Below are positions 1-15,775 of a DNA stretch of 15,791 nt, piece by piece. The stretch is taken from the IMG/VR virus record IMGVR_UViG_2737471840_000001, positions 1-15,791 of that record; one strand, given 5' to 3'. The notes below the pieces were generated by a model. That model made no database searches. It saw only the letters and a program-made list of their open reading frames with translations, and was not told the DNA's origin. A program made the translations under genes and the position numbers. The stretch comes from a virus (taxonomy: Duplodnaviria; Heunggongvirae; Uroviricota; Caudoviricetes). Numbering within the stretch: position 1 is the stretch's first letter; each line of letters opens with the position of its first letter.

Positions 1-2109
1 ACCAGCAAATGCATCCTTCACCATGTCAGAAAACTCAAGGCGAAGATCAGCATCTTTAGGCATCGGAATACCTTTCGCATCATCAGTACCTTTACGAGCC
101 GCCGCGCCAGCAAGAATTGTCTGCGCAGCGGTTTCAGGAGACACGGAAACATCCGGATTAAACCAGTTTTTTTCTGCCAAAATACCACCAGGCTTGTCCA
201 TCAGTATCCCGGCAACGGCAGCAGATGGAGCGTTGGCACTGATCTGCTGTAGTGCTGACATATACACCTGCCCACCACCAGTGCTCTGCCTGATGGTATC
301 GAGATATGCTGCCTGTTGGGAAACTGGAGCATCACGAAAGAAAACACCGATCTGATTGGCCTCGTCTTTGGAAAAGAACGTCAGTGGAGTGCCATATGAC
401 TTAGCAAGGTCACTGACCTGAGCAGCACGCAAGGCAACGCTCTGTCCAAAGTTATCCTTATTGCTCATGTCGATAGGCTTTGCCTGTCCGGCGGCAAGAG
501 AGAACTGTACAGGATCAGCCTGTCTCTGCTTTATCACCTGACTTGCAGCCGACACAACGTTGTCATAAAGAGCGGCTCGTGCCGCATAACCCTCCCCTGT
601 CTCACCAGTATCCGGGCGTAATTGCTCAACATATGCTGTAATGCTGCTTGTCGGCATGTTGCGGAAAGAGCCTATATACTGTCCGGCGATTTGCGTATTT
701 CTGAACTCGGTATATCGCAGGTTTCCTTCTCTGACTCCATAAGCTGCAATAAAATCAGCCTCACCAGGTGGGTTAGGAAATTCAACGCCACGCATATACG
801 CAGCTGTCGCATCGCGAACTTGGCTGTCAATCATCGTTTTATATTCAGCCTGCTGCTGCCGACGCAGTTGATCCGCCTGTCGCATAAAACTTGCCTGCGC
901 CTCAGGAGATGCCGCATCGAATGCTGCATTACCGGTATAGCGTTTGGTGTTGGTTGGAATTGTTGATAAACCAAGTGCTGCACTGACACCAGCAGTTAAC
1001 TGCTGATCACTGTATGGCTGGCTACCGTTCTCATGATGGATAATGGCTGCACAAAGCGCCTTCAGGGTATCAGGATTAGATGCATCGAGAGGCTCATCAG
1101 CAGAAACGCCAAGTTGTTCGCACACTGCTTTGATATACGACATAGTGTCATTTTTATCAGTAGGCGGTGCCCAGCGATTAATTATCTCGCTGACGGTATC
1201 AATACCCTGTCTCTGATACGACATCAGGTTCCGCCCTAATGCACGAATCCCGTGTTCAGGTGTTTCGAATTTAGCAAATCGACCATCATCACCGGTCTGG
1301 CCTACCCACGGATTGGTTTTGCTGTATTCGAGATTTCCTGGGTTATTGTTGCGTATGCCACGGGCACGCTCGGAAGAATCACTATCTGCTACAGCACGGC
1401 GAGCTCCAGCAGCAGTATCACTTAACTCGCCATTACTTTGGATGAATGCGGTCGCATTGTTTGCCGACCACTGGGACAATGCTGCATCAGCAACCTTCTC
1501 TTTAAACTCGATTTTCTTGGCCTGGATTTGCTCGTCGCTCCAGCCATGCGCAATGCCGTAATCCTCAATTTGCTGGAAAGTTTGCTTATTAGCCAATACG
1601 TATGCGGCGTTGTCGCCATACAATGCTGCGGCATTTTTACCATTGTTCAGCAGCGTAGCCTGAAACTGGCCTTCTTCGTAGGCATTTATTTGCCCTATCT
1701 CGTGCCGCCCGGCCTGCGTAGTGAACTGAATGCGCTGCTGCTGCGCCTGCTGCATGAAAGCATTACGAGCCTGTTCATCCGGCAGCGACATAGCCAGTTG
1801 CTCGACCTGGGCATCAAACTGCTGCGTATACTCCTGACCTTTTCCAATAGCATTTTTCCCTTTCAGGTTAAGCAAACCTGTTTCAGGGTTATTCAGCAGA
1901 TCGCTGCTTATCTGGCTTAAGCTAAGAGAAGCATCCTGAGCCATAGCAACATTCGCACGCTGTTTTGCCTGCGCAATAATACCTGCATATTGCTCTGCAA
2001 CATCGCCAAGTACATCACCGACATTTGGTGTCTGAAACGATGAGAATCCCTGCGTCGAAATCCCTCTGCTCTGAACCTGACGGCCCGATGTTGTTGGTAC
2101 AACTGGCAT
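1..2109 (-). CDS. Large virion internal/ejection-like protein (position of T7 gp15/gp16), 5' complete, 3' end beyond the window edge
   Basis: ATG at 2109 (MPVVPTTSGRQVQSRG...) preceded by AGGGGATAATAAG RBS. Frame checked open by hand at 1-60, 901-960, 1321-1380 and 1861-2109, and reaches position 1 in frame. Contains GIRNNNPGNLEY at about 1324-1359. Sits after gp13/gp14-like genes in the tail block. Confidence 0.6.
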   Translation of the reverse strand, partial: MPVVPTTSGRQVQSRGISTQGFSSFQTPNVGDVLGDVAEQYAGIIAQAKQRANVAMAQDASLSLSQISSDLLNNPETGLLNLKGKNAIGKGQEYTQQFDAQVEQLAMSLPDEQARNAFMQQAQQQRIQFTTQAGRHEIGQINAYEEGQFQATLLNNGKNAAALYGDNAAYVLANKQTFQQIEDYGIAHGWSDEQIQAKKIEFKEKVADAALSQWSANNATAFIQSNGELSDTAAGARRAVADSDSSERARGIRNNNPGNLEYSKTNPWVGQTGDDGRFAKFETPEHGIRALGRNLMSYQRQGIDTVSEIINRWAPPTDKNDTMSYIKAVCEQLGVSADEPLDASNPDTLKALCAAIIHHENGSQPYSDQQLTAGVSAALGLSTIPTNTKRYTGNAAFDAASPEAQASFMRQADQLRRQQQAEYKTMIDSQVRDATAAYMRGVEFPNPPGEADFIAAYGVREGNLRYTEFRNTQIAGQYIGSFRNMPTSSITAYVEQLRPDTGETGEGYAARAALYDNVVSAASQVIKQRQADPVQFSLAAGQAKPIDMSNKDNFGQSVALRAAQVSDLAKSYGTPLTFFSKDEANQIGVFFRDAPVSQQAAYLDTIRQSTGGGQVYMSALQQISANAPSAAVAGILMDKPGGILAEKNWFNPDVSVSPETAAQTILAGAAARKGTDDAKGIPMPKDADLRLEFSDMVKDAFAG

Positions 2110-11315: not shown

Positions 11316-11388
11316 AAATTATTACCAATTTAACCACATATGATTTATTTATCGTAGATAGTTGACATTTAACGCACAAATTATTACC
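11316..11388. repeat. Two copies of AAATTATTACC in the AT-rich intergenic region, flanking a TTGACA hexamer
   Basis: Exact 11-bp direct repeat at 11316-11326 and 11378-11388. TTGACA at 11363-11368. Inverted repeat TTACC-N5-GGTAA at 11384-11398. Confidence 0.6.
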
Positions 11389-11439
11389 TTTCAGGTAACC
11401 AAAGAGTTCATTCCGGTTACTAACCTGACTGGCTTGTCG

Positions 11440-11721: not shown

Positions 11722-11798
11722 GTGGCATTAGCTCAGTTGGACAGAGCAACCGCCTTCTAAGCGGTTGGTCGCAGGTTCGAATCCTGCATGCCACGCCA
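11722..11798 (+). tRNA. tRNA-Arg (anticodon UCU), argU-like, with encoded CCA
   Basis: Hand-folded cloverleaf: acceptor GTGGCAT/ATGCCAC, D-arm GCTC-AGTTGGACA-GAGC, anticodon stem ACCGC/GCGGT with loop CTTCTAA, T-arm GCAGG-TTCGAAT-CCTGC, discriminator G, CCA. Body closely resembles enterobacterial argU from memory. Confidence 0.9.
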
Positions 11799-11841
11799 GA
11801 ATCACGCCTAAGGACCGTGATGCCAGAAGTTCCAGGTGCTT

Positions 11842-11884
11842 GGCGGTGATGGTTTCCCTTGAAGGACTATCACCGCCATTTTTA
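11842..11884 (+). terminator. Intrinsic terminator downstream of tRNA-Arg
   Basis: GGCGGTGAT (11842-11850) pairs with ATCACCGCC (11869-11877), internal CCTT/AAGG pairing, followed by a run of five T (11879-11883). Confidence 0.55.
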
Positions 11885-12334: not shown

Positions 12335-12348
12335 CGTGACATGTCACA
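12335..12348. repeat. CGTGACATGTCACA, copy 1 (perfect 12-bp palindrome GTGACATGTCAC inside)
   Basis: Exact 14-bp match to 14600-14613. Lies 4 nt after the stop of the 110-aa ORF and before the terminator at 12352-12380. Confidence 0.8.
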
Positions 12349-12351
12349 AAC

Positions 12352-12380
12352 AGCCAGCCTATGAGCTGGCTTTGTTTTAT
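12352..12380 (+). terminator. Intrinsic terminator after the 110-aa ORF
   Basis: AGCCAGC (12352-12358) pairs with GCTGGCT (12365-12371), loop CTATGA, then TTGTTTTAT. The opposite strand has an A-tract before the hairpin, so it is unidirectional for plus-strand transcripts. Confidence 0.6.
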
Positions 12381-12421: not shown

Positions 12422-13897
12422 TTAAGCATAGGGATCGTAATCTGTGATGGCCTTGCCTTGCTGGTTCTGCTGACCGGGAATTCGCAGACGCTTCGACACA
12501 GGGAACGCAAACGTCAGCAGTAGCGCATCGCCTTTACCAGGAGAACGCCCAAGTCGCTCTTTGATATCTTCCTTCGGTTCGATAACGATTTTACCGTCCA
12601 CTCGAACTTTGTACTCTGCTGCCGACAGGTCGTCCGCTGTTTCCTGGTCATCCAGCATGCCGCCCAGCCTCAGCCATGTCTTGCATGAATTGAACATCTC
12701 CCCACGCTTGTTGAGCATCTGCGGGTCAGTAGACGCGCCACCGAACGGAACAAGTTGCCATGTACGACCCCATCCGTCACCGATTGACTTCAGACCGGTT
12801 CCGTAACCGAAGTCGATGAACACCGCGTCAGCCTGATACTGGTCTTCAAAGTCAGCGATACGCTTCGCCATAATCAGATCGTCGGTAGTCTTGTTGCCAG
12901 TCCACAGCACCTTACTGTGTAGCCCCTGCCGCAGGTATATCACCGCGTCATCAACGCCTGAATATGCCGGGTCAACACCGATTATCACCGGAGCATGCGC
13001 CACCTGCGCAGCGGTTACCACCCGTTTCATTGCCTCATCAGTAAGACCGGTAGGGATAAACTGCAATTCAGATGCATCAGGGAATATGCCGCGCACACGG
13101 ATTTTAACGAAGTCGCTGTCTTCCCCGTAGTCATCAACCCATTTCTGCAACTGCTGTTTGTTAGTGCCTTCCACCGTTCGGCTGTCAATCTGCGCAGTTT
13201 TCCAGCGGTGTTTATATTTGCGGAAACATTCACGGAATCGCCCGGTATTACGCGTCGGGTTTCCGAACGCCACCCAGATAATCTCAGTGTCTTCGTCCGT
13301 TAGCGCACCTTCGGCAACTTCCCACACCAGATCCGCAATGTTCGACGCTTCATCGAATACCACGATGATGCGTTTGCGCTCGTTGTGTAGTCCGGCGAAT
13401 GCCTCAGTGTTGTGCTCAGACCAGGGGATTGCGTCAGCTCGCCACCGCTTGTCGTGCCCAGGATCATTGCTGTACATCGCGGTAGCGGTACAGGTAAACC
13501 AGTCTTTCGTGATAGCAAGGTTCGACCACTTGATAATTTCCGGCCAGGTCTTCGTTCGTAGCTGGTTGTCGGTGTTGGCGGTCACCACGACCTTACAATC
13601 CTCGCAAGTGGACATGCCCCAGTTGATCAGCATTGAGATGAATGCGGATTTACCAATACCGTGACCAGAAGCACGTGCCAGCATAAGCGGCTGATATCGC
13701 GTCTCTGGATTCTGCAGGTGATCACGTATCTCTCGGAACGCATCGGCCTGCCACTGACGTGGACCGGTGGCATGTGCCAGTTCAGTACCCTCTTCCCCCC
13801 ACGGGAACGCATAGAGGGCATAGCCAAGCGGATCGTGAGTGAACCCTGCAATATCCTCGATTAACTGCTCTTCAGGAGATAACGCTGTATCTGTCAC
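12422..13897 (-). CDS. Terminase large subunit
   Basis: 491-aa ORF with a P-loop/Walker A motif (ASGHGIGKS) near the N-terminus and an acidic nuclease-type segment (VDPAYSGVDDAVIY) in the C-terminal half. GTG start at 13897 overlapping the terminase small stop (GTGA). Confidence 0.85.
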   Translation of the reverse strand: MTDTALSPEEQLIEDIAGFTHDPLGYALYAFPWGEEGTELAHATGPRQWQADAFREIRDHLQNPETRYQPLMLARASGHGIGKSAFISMLINWGMSTCEDCKVVVTANTDNQLRTKTWPEIIKWSNLAITKDWFTCTATAMYSNDPGHDKRWRADAIPWSEHNTEAFAGLHNERKRIIVVFDEASNIADLVWEVAEGALTDEDTEIIWVAFGNPTRNTGRFRECFRKYKHRWKTAQIDSRTVEGTNKQQLQKWVDDYGEDSDFVKIRVRGIFPDASELQFIPTGLTDEAMKRVVTAAQVAHAPVIIGVDPAYSGVDDAVIYLRQGLHSKVLWTGNKTTDDLIMAKRIADFEDQYQADAVFIDFGYGTGLKSIGDGWGRTWQLVPFGGASTDPQMLNKRGEMFNSCKTWLRLGGMLDDQETADDLSAAEYKVRVDGKIVIEPKEDIKERLGRSPGKGDALLLTFAFPVSKRLRIPGQQNQQGKAITDYDPYA

Positions 13898-14490
13898 TGA
13901 TTGCCATCCTGACGTTCTTTCAGTCTCTTCCTGGCTGCCGCTATGCGATCAGCAATTGTCACATTCACATTAACATCCAGGCGTTCTTTGAATGCGTTGA
14001 CGTCGACGTGCTTACCAATCAGTTCGAGGTTCTTCACCTTGTCAGGCCATTTAATTTTTTTGAGGATTGTCTCTATCGAATCCTCGTTCATGTTCATGAT
14101 GGTCGATGACAGATCAAAGCCACTAAGCGTAGTGCGCCAGATTTTCGGCCACTCGCGGATTGGCTTAAGACTCCCATCGTCGTTGAGGATATCAATCACG
14201 TCCATCTGGTCGATCTCCACCAGGCGCATGAGAACGTAATCAGCACTGACGCGCATTCGTTTGTTGCGCTCCTCCATCAACTCGGCAATCCGTTTTTGAA
14301 TGCGTTCATCACGCATCATGACACTGGCTTTAACTGCCGCTGTATTTGGGGAGAATCCTGCGTTAATCGCTGCCTGAGTCTGGTTTTCAGGCGTTTTGAT
14401 GTATGACTGGCAATAAGCCTCCTGCATTGCTGTTAGTGGCTTAAATTGCGTTGATTTGCGTTTATAGGTTTTAGGTTCAGCAGGCATCAT
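13894..14490 (-). CDS. Terminase small subunit (Terminase_2-like)
   Basis: Conserved N-terminal signature LTAMQEAYCQSYIKTPENQTQAAINAGFS fits the Terminase_2 family pattern as I recall it. Start moved from the track's 14568 to the internal ATG at 14490 (MMPAEPK...) because a terminator hairpin and tandem repeats occupy 14498-14561. Confidence 0.7.
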   Translation of the reverse strand: MMPAEPKTYKRKSTQFKPLTAMQEAYCQSYIKTPENQTQAAINAGFSPNTAAVKASVMMRDERIQKRIAELMEERNKRMRVSADYVLMRLVEIDQMDVIDILNDDGSLKPIREWPKIWRTTLSGFDLSSTIMNMNEDSIETILKKIKWPDKVKNLELIGKHVDVNAFKERLDVNVNVTIADRIAAARKRLKERQDGNQ

Positions 14491-14497
14491 AACCACC

Positions 14498-14529
14498 GTG
14501 GTAATAGTTACCGTTGTGGTAATAGTACC
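14498..14529. repeat. Tandem imperfect repeat GTGGTAATAGTTACC / GTGGTAATAGTACC, each internally palindromic
   Basis: Copies at 14498-14512 and 14516-14529, separated by GTT. Located between the terminator hairpin and the terminase small start. A possible extended -10 element (TGGTACTAT on the minus strand, plus coordinates 14522-14530) overlaps copy 2. Confidence 0.6.
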
Positions 14530-14530
14530 A

Positions 14531-14561
14531 TGCAAAATAAAGCCGCCATAGTTGGCGGCAG
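14531..14561 (-). terminator. Intrinsic terminator upstream of the terminase genes
   Basis: Minus strand reads CTGCCGCC-AACTAT-GGCGGC followed by TTTATTTTG; plus-strand stem at 14542-14547 and 14554-14559. Confidence 0.5.
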
Positions 14562-14599
14562 TATTCAAAACCCATCAAATTCATCATGCATAATCTACT

Positions 14600-14613
14600 C
14601 GTGACATGTCACA
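14600..14613. repeat. CGTGACATGTCACA, copy 2
   Basis: Exact 14-bp match to 12335-12348. Overlaps the stop codon of the 115-aa minus-strand ORF and lies just upstream, in the minus-strand sense, of the terminator at 14531-14561. Confidence 0.8.
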
Positions 14614-14956
14614 CTATTAATTTCGTTTCATGCCAGCCTTTAGTCACCCAGCATTGCGAGTCACCATTACACGGGCATGAATTCACAGGAACTCTCTCGC
14701 CGCACTTACCGCAACGTTTTCTGCTGATCGATTTTATACGCCCGCGCACGCGTGCATCATCCTGGCGGATCAGTAACGCTATATACTCACCAAATTCGTA
14801 AGGCGCACGCCCGGGGCGACGTGTGGCACAGTTACGCTCCAGCATTTCAATTTCCTGAGCATCAAGCACAATCTCCAGCTTACGTACACCGGATTCAGCT
14901 TGTCTGGCTCTCTGAGCGGCTTTGCGTTCTGCGGGGGATTTAGCCACGAATCGCAC
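14609..14956 (-). CDS. Hypothetical protein with basic N-terminus and C-terminal cysteine cluster (possible zinc-ribbon or nucleic-acid-binding protein)
   Basis: 115-aa ORF with no ATG; GTG at 14956 or 14947, the latter with GGAG 8 nt upstream. C-terminus CGKCGERVPVNSCPCNGDSQC. Function unknown. Confidence 0.45.
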   Translation of the reverse strand: MRFVAKSPAERKAAQRARQAESGVRKLEIVLDAQEIEMLERNCATRRPGRAPYEFGEYIALLIRQDDARVRGRIKSISRKRCGKCGERVPVNSCPCNGDSQCWVTKGWHETKLIV

Positions 14957-15062
14957 TCCACGCCAGATTGATTAATGACTCCCAGGCAATATAAACCCGG
15001 ATACCAGCAGCCAGGCCGAAACCAATCACCATGGCATAAAGCAGAGCGTTGCACTTGTTCAT
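14940..15062 (-). CDS. Candidate 40-aa single-pass membrane peptide
   Basis: ATG at 15062 overlaps the stop of the DUF551 gene. Product MNKCNALLYAMVIGFGLAAGIRVYIAWESLINLAWSAIRG has one hydrophobic helix. The 65-aa track ORF would overlap the upstream gene by 76 nt, so the internal start is preferred. Confidence 0.35.
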   Translation of the reverse strand: MNKCNALLYAMVIGFGLAAGIRVYIAWESLINLAWSAIRG

Positions 15063-15775
15063 CACTTCACCTCCTGCGGCGGTTCTGGTAGCGGCATCCA
15101 GTGTGACGGTTTCCACGACGCACCAGGAATTATCCACCCATCATTAGCGTCAGGATGCCCGGGGATGTAAGTAGCCCATTTCATTCGCCAGTCACCTTTC
15201 CTGTCAAACTCCACGGCAACAAGAACGGCTGTTTTGGTATTCGGCATTCGCTCACTACAGCTTATCCAACCATCCGGAGTTGCCGGAGAGTTGCCCGATA
15301 GCTGGTTCAACTTGTAAGTTTGGCTTACAGGTTCGGCACCATGAAGCATGGCGTCGCTCCGCTCTATGCCATCCAGCGCGATTCGCAGTGCCTGAATTGT
15401 GGTAGAGCTATCGTTTGGGGCTATTCCATATCGCTCGAATACAGCTAAATGGTTGCGCATAATCTCAGGCGTAAGCTCTTTGTAAGCATAAGCAAGAGGC
15501 TCTGATGCATTATCCGGCACAACCGACGCAGGCGCGGCAGCATAAACAGGAATAACGTCCGCTTGCTCTTTATTGCTTTCATCCGTTAAAGACCAGAATA
15601 ATTTCCCGGCCGGATGTTTGAAAATATAAGCAACTGGATCTGCTTCCAGCGATGCCAGCGCAATTCGTGCCAGTTCTTCCGCCTCTTCTGCTGGCAGTAC
15701 AACGTTGCTACCAGGTCCGTATGTTTCGCGCCACTGCTTGATTGTCAGTAGTCGCTCTTTGGTAATAGTGATCAT
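15062..15775 (-). CDS. DUF551-domain phage protein
   Basis: 237-aa ORF, ATG at 15775 with AAGGAA RBS. C-terminus ...DGWIIPGASWKPSHWMPLPEPP matches the DUF551 signature common in enterobacterial lambdoid prophages, from memory. Confidence 0.6.
   Translation of the reverse strand: MITITKERLLTIKQWRETYGPGSNVVLPAEEAEELARIALASLEADPVAYIFKHPAGKLFWSLTDESNKEQADVIPVYAAAPASVVPDNASEPLAYAYKELTPEIMRNHLAVFERYGIAPNDSSTTIQALRIALDGIERSDAMLHGAEPVSQTYKLNQLSGNSPATPDGWISCSERMPNTKTAVLVAVEFDRKGDWRMKWATYIPGHPDANDGWIIPGASWKPSHWMPLPEPPQEVK

Follow-up and report, generated by a model that had tools for sequence, protein, structure and literature searches.

Predicted regulatory leader of the terminase genes in an epsilon15/phiV10-like E. 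coli prophage

Introduction

Several described phage systems combine repressor-binding sites, promoters and packaging genes in ways that bear on the locus discussed here. In lambda and P22, the operators of the CI repressor (OL and OR) are palindromic 17-bp sites that lie over promoters and are bound in cooperative pairs by a helix-turn-helix protein. The lambda repressor acts only at early promoters, and the late genes depend on antitermination by Q. In mycobacteriophage L5, work by Brown and colleagues from 1997 is said to have identified ‘stoperators’ for the gp71 protein, many sites distributed over the genome in short intergenic spaces, including those of late regions. The L5 stoperators are asymmetric 13-bp sequences that block elongation in an orientation-dependent manner. 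For Salmonella phage SPC32H, a Rep/Ant lysis-lysogeny switch was reportedly described by Kim and Ryu in 2013 and by Kim and co-workers in 2016. Finally, the pac site of phage SPP1 spans the promoter/leader region and the 5' end of a small-terminase gene of the Terminase_2 type.

The orthologous locus is annotated in phage epsilon15, whose RefSeq record (NC_004775.2) contains a stem_loop at 39646-39672 labeled ‘rho-independent terminator’ and a protein_bind feature at 12-27 labeled ‘repressor’. There are seven ‘protein_bind: repressor’ sites in that record, all of them of the form ATTACC-N5-GGTAAT. The epsilon15 annotation is itself a prediction, and of the two adjacent sites described below it includes only the first. 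In the phiV10 record, a putative terminator is annotated at the record junction.

Genomic context

The window, meaning the whole stretch of 15,791 nucleotides that was analyzed (IMG/VR record IMGVR_UViG_2737471840_000001), can be assigned by sequence comparison to an E. coli prophage resembling epsilon15 and phiV10 (genus Uetakevirus), which is of the podophage type. Positions 13800-15200 have 94-98% identity to Uetakevirus podophages, including phiv142-3, TL-2011b, ZX5, PAS61 and phiV10. The 321-bp leader was found as prophage in 503 of 5426 complete E. coli genomes (~9%), and the complete relatives ZX5 and ML35 have 99-100% identity to the window over the leader (99.6% for ZX5).

On the minus strand, the gene order is a DUF551 gene, small ORFs, a regulator gene, terS and terL; beyond terL there are a convergent Gp49-family gene, tRNA-Arg, and the portal and head genes. 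The genes and boundaries around the leader are:

14609-14947/14956, minus strand: regulator gene (112-115 aa), with PHROG 536 ‘transcriptional regulator’ as its sole match
14565-14585, minus strand: 21-nt remnant of a small ORF (its 3' end), which other E. coli prophages carry in complete form (70 aa) at this position
13894-14487, minus strand: terS, small terminase subunit, 197 aa from ATG 14487; Pfam PF03592 (Terminase_2), E = 1e-29
12422-13897, minus strand: terL, large terminase subunit, from the ORF list and annotated orthologues; the last of two genes in its unit
12352-12371, no strand assigned: hairpin separating terL from the convergent Gp49-family gene, the downstream limit of the terS-terL unit

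The hairpin at 12352-12371 has a strong T-run on the plus strand. terS and terL thus appear to form a separate unit of two genes, with terminators on both sides and an operator-covered promoter of its own.

Predicted operators and their probable link to a repressor

The features of the leader, together with a related site elsewhere in the window, are:

14534-14559, minus strand: predicted intrinsic terminator, from a terminator scan, fold energy, annotation of the epsilon15 orthologue and conservation
14522-14530, minus strand: candidate extended -10 element, TGGTACTAT (TG-G-TACTAT), read from the sequence and from its conservation, with a putative promoter function
14507-14523, no strand assigned: predicted operator O1, ATTACCACAACGGTAAC, one mismatch to ATTACC-N5-GGTAAT; the epsilon15 orthologue is annotated ‘protein_bind: repressor’
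14489-14505, no strand assigned: predicted operator O2, ATTACCACGGTGGTTAT, also with one mismatch to ATTACC-N5-GGTAAT
14493-14497, minus strand: Shine-Dalgarno sequence GGTGG, read from the sequence and conserved in relatives
11383-11399, no strand assigned: predicted third operator copy, GTTACCTGAAAGGTAAT as read on the minus strand, with one mismatch, upstream of the portal/head operon

The initial annotation of this DNA had pointed to operator-like palindromic repeats ahead of terS, and comparison with related phages bears this out, as the repeats are copies of a genus-wide motif, ATTACC-N5-GGTAAT, that carries the label ‘protein_bind: repressor’ in epsilon15. The repeat unit needs to be redrawn: what had been taken for tandem units of 14-15 bp forms in each case the left portion of an imperfect palindrome of 17 bp. 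The two palindromes are adjacent, with a centre-to-centre distance of 18 bp, and an exact 11-nt direct repeat, ACTATTACCAC, occurs at 14526-14516 and again at 14508-14498 (an offset of 18 nt). Tandem Repeats Finder gave no report for the leader, this repeat being too short for the program.

Three matches to the motif are present in the window, where 0.03 would be expected, and none of 200 shuffled sequences reaches three. The sites are 17-bp inverted repeats with half-sites ATTACC and GGTAAT and a 5-nt gap, and they lie between genes, ahead of terS and of the portal operon. O1 is the orthologue of the epsilon15 site at 12-27, and the third copy is the orthologue of the epsilon15 site at 2931-2947, which is also annotated as a repressor site. 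Within the leader, O1 takes in the final 2 nt of the -10 hexamer as well as the predicted +1. O2 covers the Shine-Dalgarno sequence, which coincides with its right half; it ends 2 nt before the likely start codon, ATG 14487, and overlaps two bases of a non-conserved ATG at 14490. The equivalent of O2 is operator-like in BUCT554 (one mismatch) and in Tyrion and epsilon15 (two mismatches each), and degenerate in Klebsiella phi13.3 and some IMG/VR leaders. As an operator, O2 may be weak or restricted to certain lineages.

In seven complete Uetakevirus genomes, the motif occurs at 9-12 sites per genome; shuffles of the ZX5 genome give 0.09. All 10 of the ZX5 sites are fully intergenic, as are only 7.6% of 17-nt segments. 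The consensus, which was built from 73 sites, has near-invariant half-sites and a variable central 5 nt. The half-sites are identical in all relatives examined, and the natural variants among IMG/VR leaders have changes in the spacers and none in the half-sites. In ZX5, epsilon15 and phiV10, the repressor gene has sites on either side, and further sites precede the early-left, early-right and DUF1064/RuvC units as well as terS, the tailspike gene and the portal operon; epsilon15 and phiV10 have one ahead of the lysis cassette, too. Pairs of operators recur at spacings of 17-20 bp and of exactly 62 bp.

The connection to a particular repressor is drawn from complete relatives, as the window ends short of the immunity region and holds neither rep nor ant. 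The motif flanks the gene of a Rep homologue in ZX5, phiV10, ML35, epsilon15, Tyrion, PAT1, SPN1S and BUCT554, and the ZX5 repressor matches SPC32H Rep (PDB 5D50) with E = 4e-42. Rep is described as binding palindromic DNA as a tetramer (PMC9638917) and as having a looping-type tetramerisation domain (PMC9986798). The operator pairs that recur at 17-20 bp and 62 bp are compatible with a tetramer of this kind, a single one of which would require two neighbouring palindromes. From sequence comparison, O1 and O2 are predicted operators of the phage lysogeny repressor, a homologue of SPC32H Rep, which would bind to them.

Predicted terminator and candidate promoter

A terminator had been proposed at 14531-14561, and this proposal is well founded: a hairpin and T-tract are present at 14559-14534, they are matched by the terminator scan and conserved, and the epsilon15 record lists the orthologous hairpin as a rho-independent terminator. 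The stem GCCGCCA/TGGCGGC (14559-14553 and 14548-14542) has 7 bp, of which six are GC pairs, and a 4-nt loop, ACTA. The T-tract, TTTATTTT, is at 14541-14534, directly after the hairpin (14559-14542). Taken as RNA, the 48-nt terminator stretch has a folding energy of -16.4 kcal/mol (z = -3.2 relative to shuffles). The hairpin lies 50 nt past the stop codon of the gene upstream, which is on the same strand; the sequence thus has the makeup of an intrinsic terminator, a GC-rich stem-loop and then a U-tract, downstream of a same-strand gene.

The hairpin and T-tract are kept in epsilon15, Tyrion, SPN1S, PAT1 and Klebsiella phage phi13.3; BUCT554, whose upstream DNA is unrelated, lacks the hairpin. 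In epsilon15, Tyrion, SPN1S, PAT1 and the window, the hairpin comes after the regulator gene; in E. coli 22-245 it comes after a 70-aa ORF, and in Klebsiella phi13.3 after an 85-aa gene that is itself behind a LexA box. In the window, the hairpin and T-tract would end transcription arriving from the early-right operon, of which the 112-115-aa regulator is the last gene.

The candidate promoter lies downstream of the T-tract. Its -10 hexamer, TACTAT at 14527-14522, matches the consensus at four of six positions, with the A at position 2 and the T at position 6 both present, and TG is found one base upstream. The predicted transcription start is at about 14515, within O1. There is no usable -35 for this candidate, and the TGGTACTAT element was not listed by a promoter consensus scan; the promoter could be weak or activator-dependent.

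Conservation of the leader provides further information. In an alignment of the leaders of the window, phiV10, ZX5, PAT1, Klebsiella phi13.3 and BUCT554, the most conserved block is GC-R-TG-n-TA-n-TATTACC. BUCT554 has kept TGATAGTAT despite unrelated upstream DNA and the loss of the hairpin. A search of IMG/VR recovered 47 distinct terS leaders, all of which have the TG just upstream; the search pattern, TACTATTACC-N5-GGTAA, fixes the bases it contains, so that only the TG counts as independent evidence. In the same 47 leaders, the base after the TG, the operator spacers and the terS allele vary. The other operators lack a conserved 5' flank, yet they are often directly adjoined by a -10-like hexamer; in ZX5, for example, the early-left promoter reads TTGACA-17-CATAAT-t-ATTACC. 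Because the 5' flank is unconserved elsewhere, the operator by itself does not account for the conservation in the terS leader. The invariance of TGnTACTAT across leaders with unrelated upstream sequence agrees with the earlier suggestion that a possible extended -10 promoter follows the terminator, and leader conservation supports such a promoter, with its -10 and putative +1 covered by O1.

Control at the RNA level was considered separately. A switch of this type is unlikely because there is no Rfam match above threshold in the leader (only a sub-threshold match to rseX, with E = 0.29) and no significant RNA structure in the predicted 5' UTR (z = -0.9).

Probable translation start of terS

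The initial annotation had placed a ribosome-binding site and then a start at ATG 14490. Both the site and the ATG exist; the conserved start, however, is the next codon, ATG 14487. The distance from GGTGG is 5 nt to ATG 14487 and 2 nt to ATG 14490. ATG 14487 aligns with the ATG of epsilon15, Tyrion, PAT1, SPN1S and phi13.3, where the protein begins M-P-x-x-P-K, and in one natural IMG/VR variant the two codons read ATT-ATG, with the first ATG lost and the second kept. The annotations of TL-2011b and ZX5 start terS at the equivalent of 14487. TerS most likely starts at ATG 14487 (MPAEPK...), one codon downstream of 14490.

The longest ORF in this frame starts instead at TTG 14568, and phiV10 and RefSeq/PGAP (for E. 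coli ML35) annotate this long form. Its translation, LNTAANYGGFILHGTITTTVTITTVVMMPAEPK, contains HGTITTTVTITTVVMMPAEPK and agrees with the odd TITTTVTITT peptide that had been pointed out earlier. The long frame is open in the window and in phiV10, ZX5, epsilon15, Tyrion, SPN1S and PAT1, and it is closed by in-frame stops in Klebsiella phi13.3 and BUCT554. Its start codon is not conserved (TTG in the window, ATG in SPN1S and PAT1), and in epsilon15 and Tyrion there is no long-form start codon upstream of the hairpin. Over the 25 upstream codons, the ratio of synonymous to nonsynonymous changes is 1:6 relative to Tyrion and 3:8 relative to epsilon15; within terS, the corresponding ratios are 61:24 and 58:44. 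The Pfam Terminase_2 domain begins after the short start. The earlier view that the long ORF does not mark the true start is upheld by the stops in phi13.3 and BUCT554 and by the lack of a conserved start codon.

Upstream palindrome and regulator gene

A further element is found next to the leader:

14601-14612, no strand assigned: perfect 12-bp palindrome, GTGACATGTCAC, overlapping the regulator stop codon

A second copy of GTGACATGTCAC is at 12336-12347, giving two in the window where 0.01 would be expected. By sequence comparison, the palindrome travels with the upstream regulator gene, in unrelated phages also. Searches of Pfam, NCBIfam and the PDB gave no match for the regulator protein, and a PDB profile search with the regulator alignment was also empty. 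Its AlphaFold model is poor (pLDDT 57.6). The protein looks like a ribbon-helix-helix N-terminus joined to a Cys-rich C-terminus.

Most of the Uetakevirus genomes examined have three copies of GTGACATGTCAC, each followed closely by an intrinsic terminator in the direction of transcription. Outside the genus, Pectobacterium phage ZF40 has an exact copy located 2 nt beyond the stop codon of a regulator homologue and two more exact copies (0.03 expected); a P2-like Yersinia phage has GTGACGCGTCAC, and Klebsiella siphovirus KpLi5 has GTGACTGGTCAC, over the stop codon of the respective homologue.

The regulator could bind GTGACATGTCAC and enforce or relieve termination as a second layer of control, so that the packaging genes would be gated by Rep at O1/O2 and by the regulator at the terminator together; we regard this as doubtful. 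An arrangement like that of lambda Q, with a regulator gene, a site over the -35, a short terminated RNA and then the late genes, was also considered, and it was dropped because the distance from palindrome to hairpin is not conserved (23 nt in epsilon15, 41 nt in the window and >200 nt where a gene is inserted). The promoter-like sequence GTGACA-18-CATGAT, which formed part of that idea, is lost in the variants carrying the inserted gene. No homology of the regulator to the Q family was found, PHROG 536 being its only match, nor was the fixed geometry of site, promoter and terminator that a Q module has.

Overall reading and alternatives

Our preferred reading is that 14489-14559 is the regulatory leader of terS-terL, comprising a terminator, an extended -10 promoter, Rep operators and a translation start at 14487; we give this whole chain a probability of roughly 0.7. 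Confidence is higher than that for the Rep-type operators and for the terminator, and lower for the promoter. The events would be as follows. Beyond the terminator, TGGTACTAT would serve as a promoter of the extended -10 type, lacking a -35, and start transcription near 14515. During lysogeny, a single Rep tetramer bound to both palindromes would keep the promoter closed: Rep at O1 and O2 would block RNA polymerase at the extended -10 and cover the ribosome-binding-site region of the DNA. Once an antirepressor removes or inactivates Rep, the promoter would fire and terS-terL would be expressed, with TerS translated from ATG 14487 rather than from TTG 14568 or ATG 14490. Termination, promoter activity, Rep binding and the geometry of the tetramer are all predictions here; comparative evidence backs each step, in keeping with the initial annotation's suggestion that the packaging operon may be under its own regulated control.

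The promoter is also where the main alternative departs from this reading. The sites could be real Rep operators in a leader that has no promoter, with terS-terL transcribed by read-through over a leaky or antiterminated hairpin and Rep at O1/O2 acting as a roadblock or back-up stop. The candidate promoter does lack a -35 and was missed by the consensus scan, and a regulator gene of uncharacterised function and its palindrome are just upstream. Moreover, the order of terminator and then operator recurs at auxiliary-looking sites that have a better promoter 62 bp downstream (13109 and 16108 in ZX5). What makes transcription by read-through unlikely in our view is that TGn and TAnTAT keep a fixed position relative to O1 even in BUCT554, with no hairpin and unrelated upstream DNA, whereas the 5' flank is not conserved at other operators.

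The two remaining alternatives assign the repeats another role altogether. If they were a pac site bound by TerS, their location at the 5' end of a terS gene of the Pfam Terminase_2 type would be the right one; relatives of TerL are annotated as similar to proteins of headful-packaging phages (P1 PacB, Sf6 gp2), and several database records open inside the leader. Those record starts, however, vary by phage and are mostly at gene boundaries, so that they look conventional rather than physical, and each genome contains 9-12 copies of the motif, most of them near the repressor gene or at the start of other operons. Thus, the motif is genome-wide rather than specific to terS or to a packaging site, and we rejected the pac reading as highly improbable; a literature search on the packaging mode of Uetakevirus gave nothing specific. 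Least probable is that the ORF from TTG 14568 is the true terS and that the hairpin and repeats are simply coding sequence. Its frame is open in the window and six relatives and was chosen by PGAP and by the phiV10 authors, but in phi13.3 and BUCT554 stop codons interrupt it, and a conserved start codon is lacking. Although the DNA of the extension is well conserved, most of the changes in it are nonsynonymous; the Pfam domain starts after the short start, and GGTGG is 5 nt before ATG 14487.

Comparison with known systems

The preferred reading, a terminator followed by an operator-covered promoter of terS-terL, can be compared most directly with epsilon15, in which the order of elements is the same: the last early gene, GTGACATGTCAC, the hairpin and T-tract, TGnTACTAT, ATTACC-N5-GGTAAT, a second, operator-like palindrome, GGTGG and ATG. 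The differences are that both window operators carry one mismatch and that the spacer between palindrome and hairpin is 18 nt longer in the window, because it holds the small-ORF remnant. O2, the 18-bp tandem arrangement and the over-long RefSeq terS are not annotated in any record examined. The leader layout as such is already annotated in epsilon15, and is real but ordinary.

The analysis has two practical results. One is a testable map of packaging-gene silencing in an epsilon15/phiV10-like prophage, in which the terS promoter and ribosome-binding site appear to be covered directly by the lysogeny repressor, so that its action is not confined to early promoters. The other is a systematic annotation error: the TTG start used by RefSeq and phiV10 reads through the terminator and two operators, adding ~27 spurious residues. 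Neither the silencing map nor the annotation error alters the general view of phage regulation.

Among better-known systems, the Rep/Ant switch of SPC32H is related by its repressor, of which the ZX5 protein is a clear homologue (E = 4e-42); the Rep tetramer described in the two reports cited above suits the paired operators. Compared to SPP1 pac, the location is similar, but the repeats here are a genome-wide operator motif rather than boxes specific to terS. The likeness to the L5 stoperators lies in one repressor having many spread sites; the Uetakevirus sites differ in being symmetric and in being placed against -10-like hexamers. Unlike in lambda, an operator is found directly before the packaging, head and tailspike units of Uetakevirus, and in epsilon15 and phiV10 before the lysis unit too.

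A putative regulator and its candidate palindromic site

Just upstream of the terS-leader hairpin lies a gene for a PHROG 536 protein, here called the regulator, and its end overlaps a perfect 12-bp palindrome, GTGACATGTCAC. This palindrome occurs in two to three copies per genome, against 0.01-0.03 expected. The features are as follows (L-numbers denote compared sequence records, with their own coordinates):

14609-14947/14956, minus strand: regulator, 112-115 aa
14601-14612 and 12336-12347: palindrome copies, window
19535, 21800 and 39430: palindrome copies, L009
2142, 19517 and 39612: palindrome copies, L008
5125, 7622 and 14944: palindrome copies, L020

In Uetakeviruses, an intrinsic terminator is found shortly downstream of each copy. 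In phages of four unrelated groups, the regulator gene has the form GTGAC-N2-GTCAC at its stop codon or spanning it. This recurrence, together with the placement at terminators and at the regulator stop codon, suggests a protein with a cognate site, and the regulator and the GTGAC-N2-GTCAC palindrome are the putative pair. The record of phage Tyrion (L011) starts exactly at the palindrome centre (junction 41755 to 6, between GTGACA and TGTCAC); the choice of this point, 2 nt past the last gene, is probably arbitrary.

The N-terminus of the regulator resembles a ribbon-helix-helix (RKLEIVLDAQEIEMLE...), and the C-terminus is rich in Cys (CGKCG...CPCNGDSQC). Searches of Pfam, NCBIfam and the PDB returned no match, ‘hypothetical protein’ is the sole name found across database entries, and the AlphaFold model is poor (pLDDT 57.6). 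In the early operon of Uetakeviruses, of ZF40 and of a P2-like Yersinia phage, the gene comes last or close to last; in Klebsiella phage KpLi5 it is found downstream of the Q gene.

Gene content and annotation around the terS leader

Extra genes are taken up between the regulator gene and the hairpin of the terS leader, in a space here called the slot:

14565-14585: ORF remnant in the slot, window
410-622: slot gene, L019
7860-8189: slot gene, L013
338-595: slot gene, L004

In E. coli 22-245 it holds a 70-aa ORF, of which the window retains the final 21 nt alone. In BUCT554 and Klebsiella phi13.3, a different gene fills the slot; the strong promoter ahead of it contains a LexA box without mismatch, TACTGTTTAAATGTACAGTA, and the gene is probably that of the antirepressor.

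The small terminase gene, terS, has been given a TTG start (14568 in the window) by RefSeq/PGAP (E. coli ML35, WP_024166494.1) and in phiV10 (YP_512255.2), so that its product runs across the terminator as well as the two operators. Another long start is given in SPN1S and PAT1. The loci concerned are as follows:

13894-14568, minus strand: window
20133-20843: L015
41-715: L010

This annotation is likely an N-terminal over-extension, which we expect to recur in many of the ~500 leader-carrying E. coli genomes, the annotation checked being that of ML35 only.

Between terL and the portal operon is a tRNA gene, with the late genes on the other strand; the ML35 prophage annotation includes the same tRNA, and a terminator-like hairpin with a 15-bp stem (11841-11878) follows it.

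11722-11798, plus strand: tRNA-Arg, anticodon TCT

Operator spacing

Copies of the operator (ATTACC-N5-GGTAAT) also recur in pairs whose centres are exactly 62 bp apart (L008, L009, L011-L014); such pairs are found at two places, beside the repressor gene and ahead of the DUF1064/RuvC unit. An example is ZX5:

13047/13109 and 16108/16170: 62-bp operator pairs, ZX5

Adjacent operator pairs are spaced by 17-20 bp. Either spacing would suit a repressor that acts as a looping tetramer.
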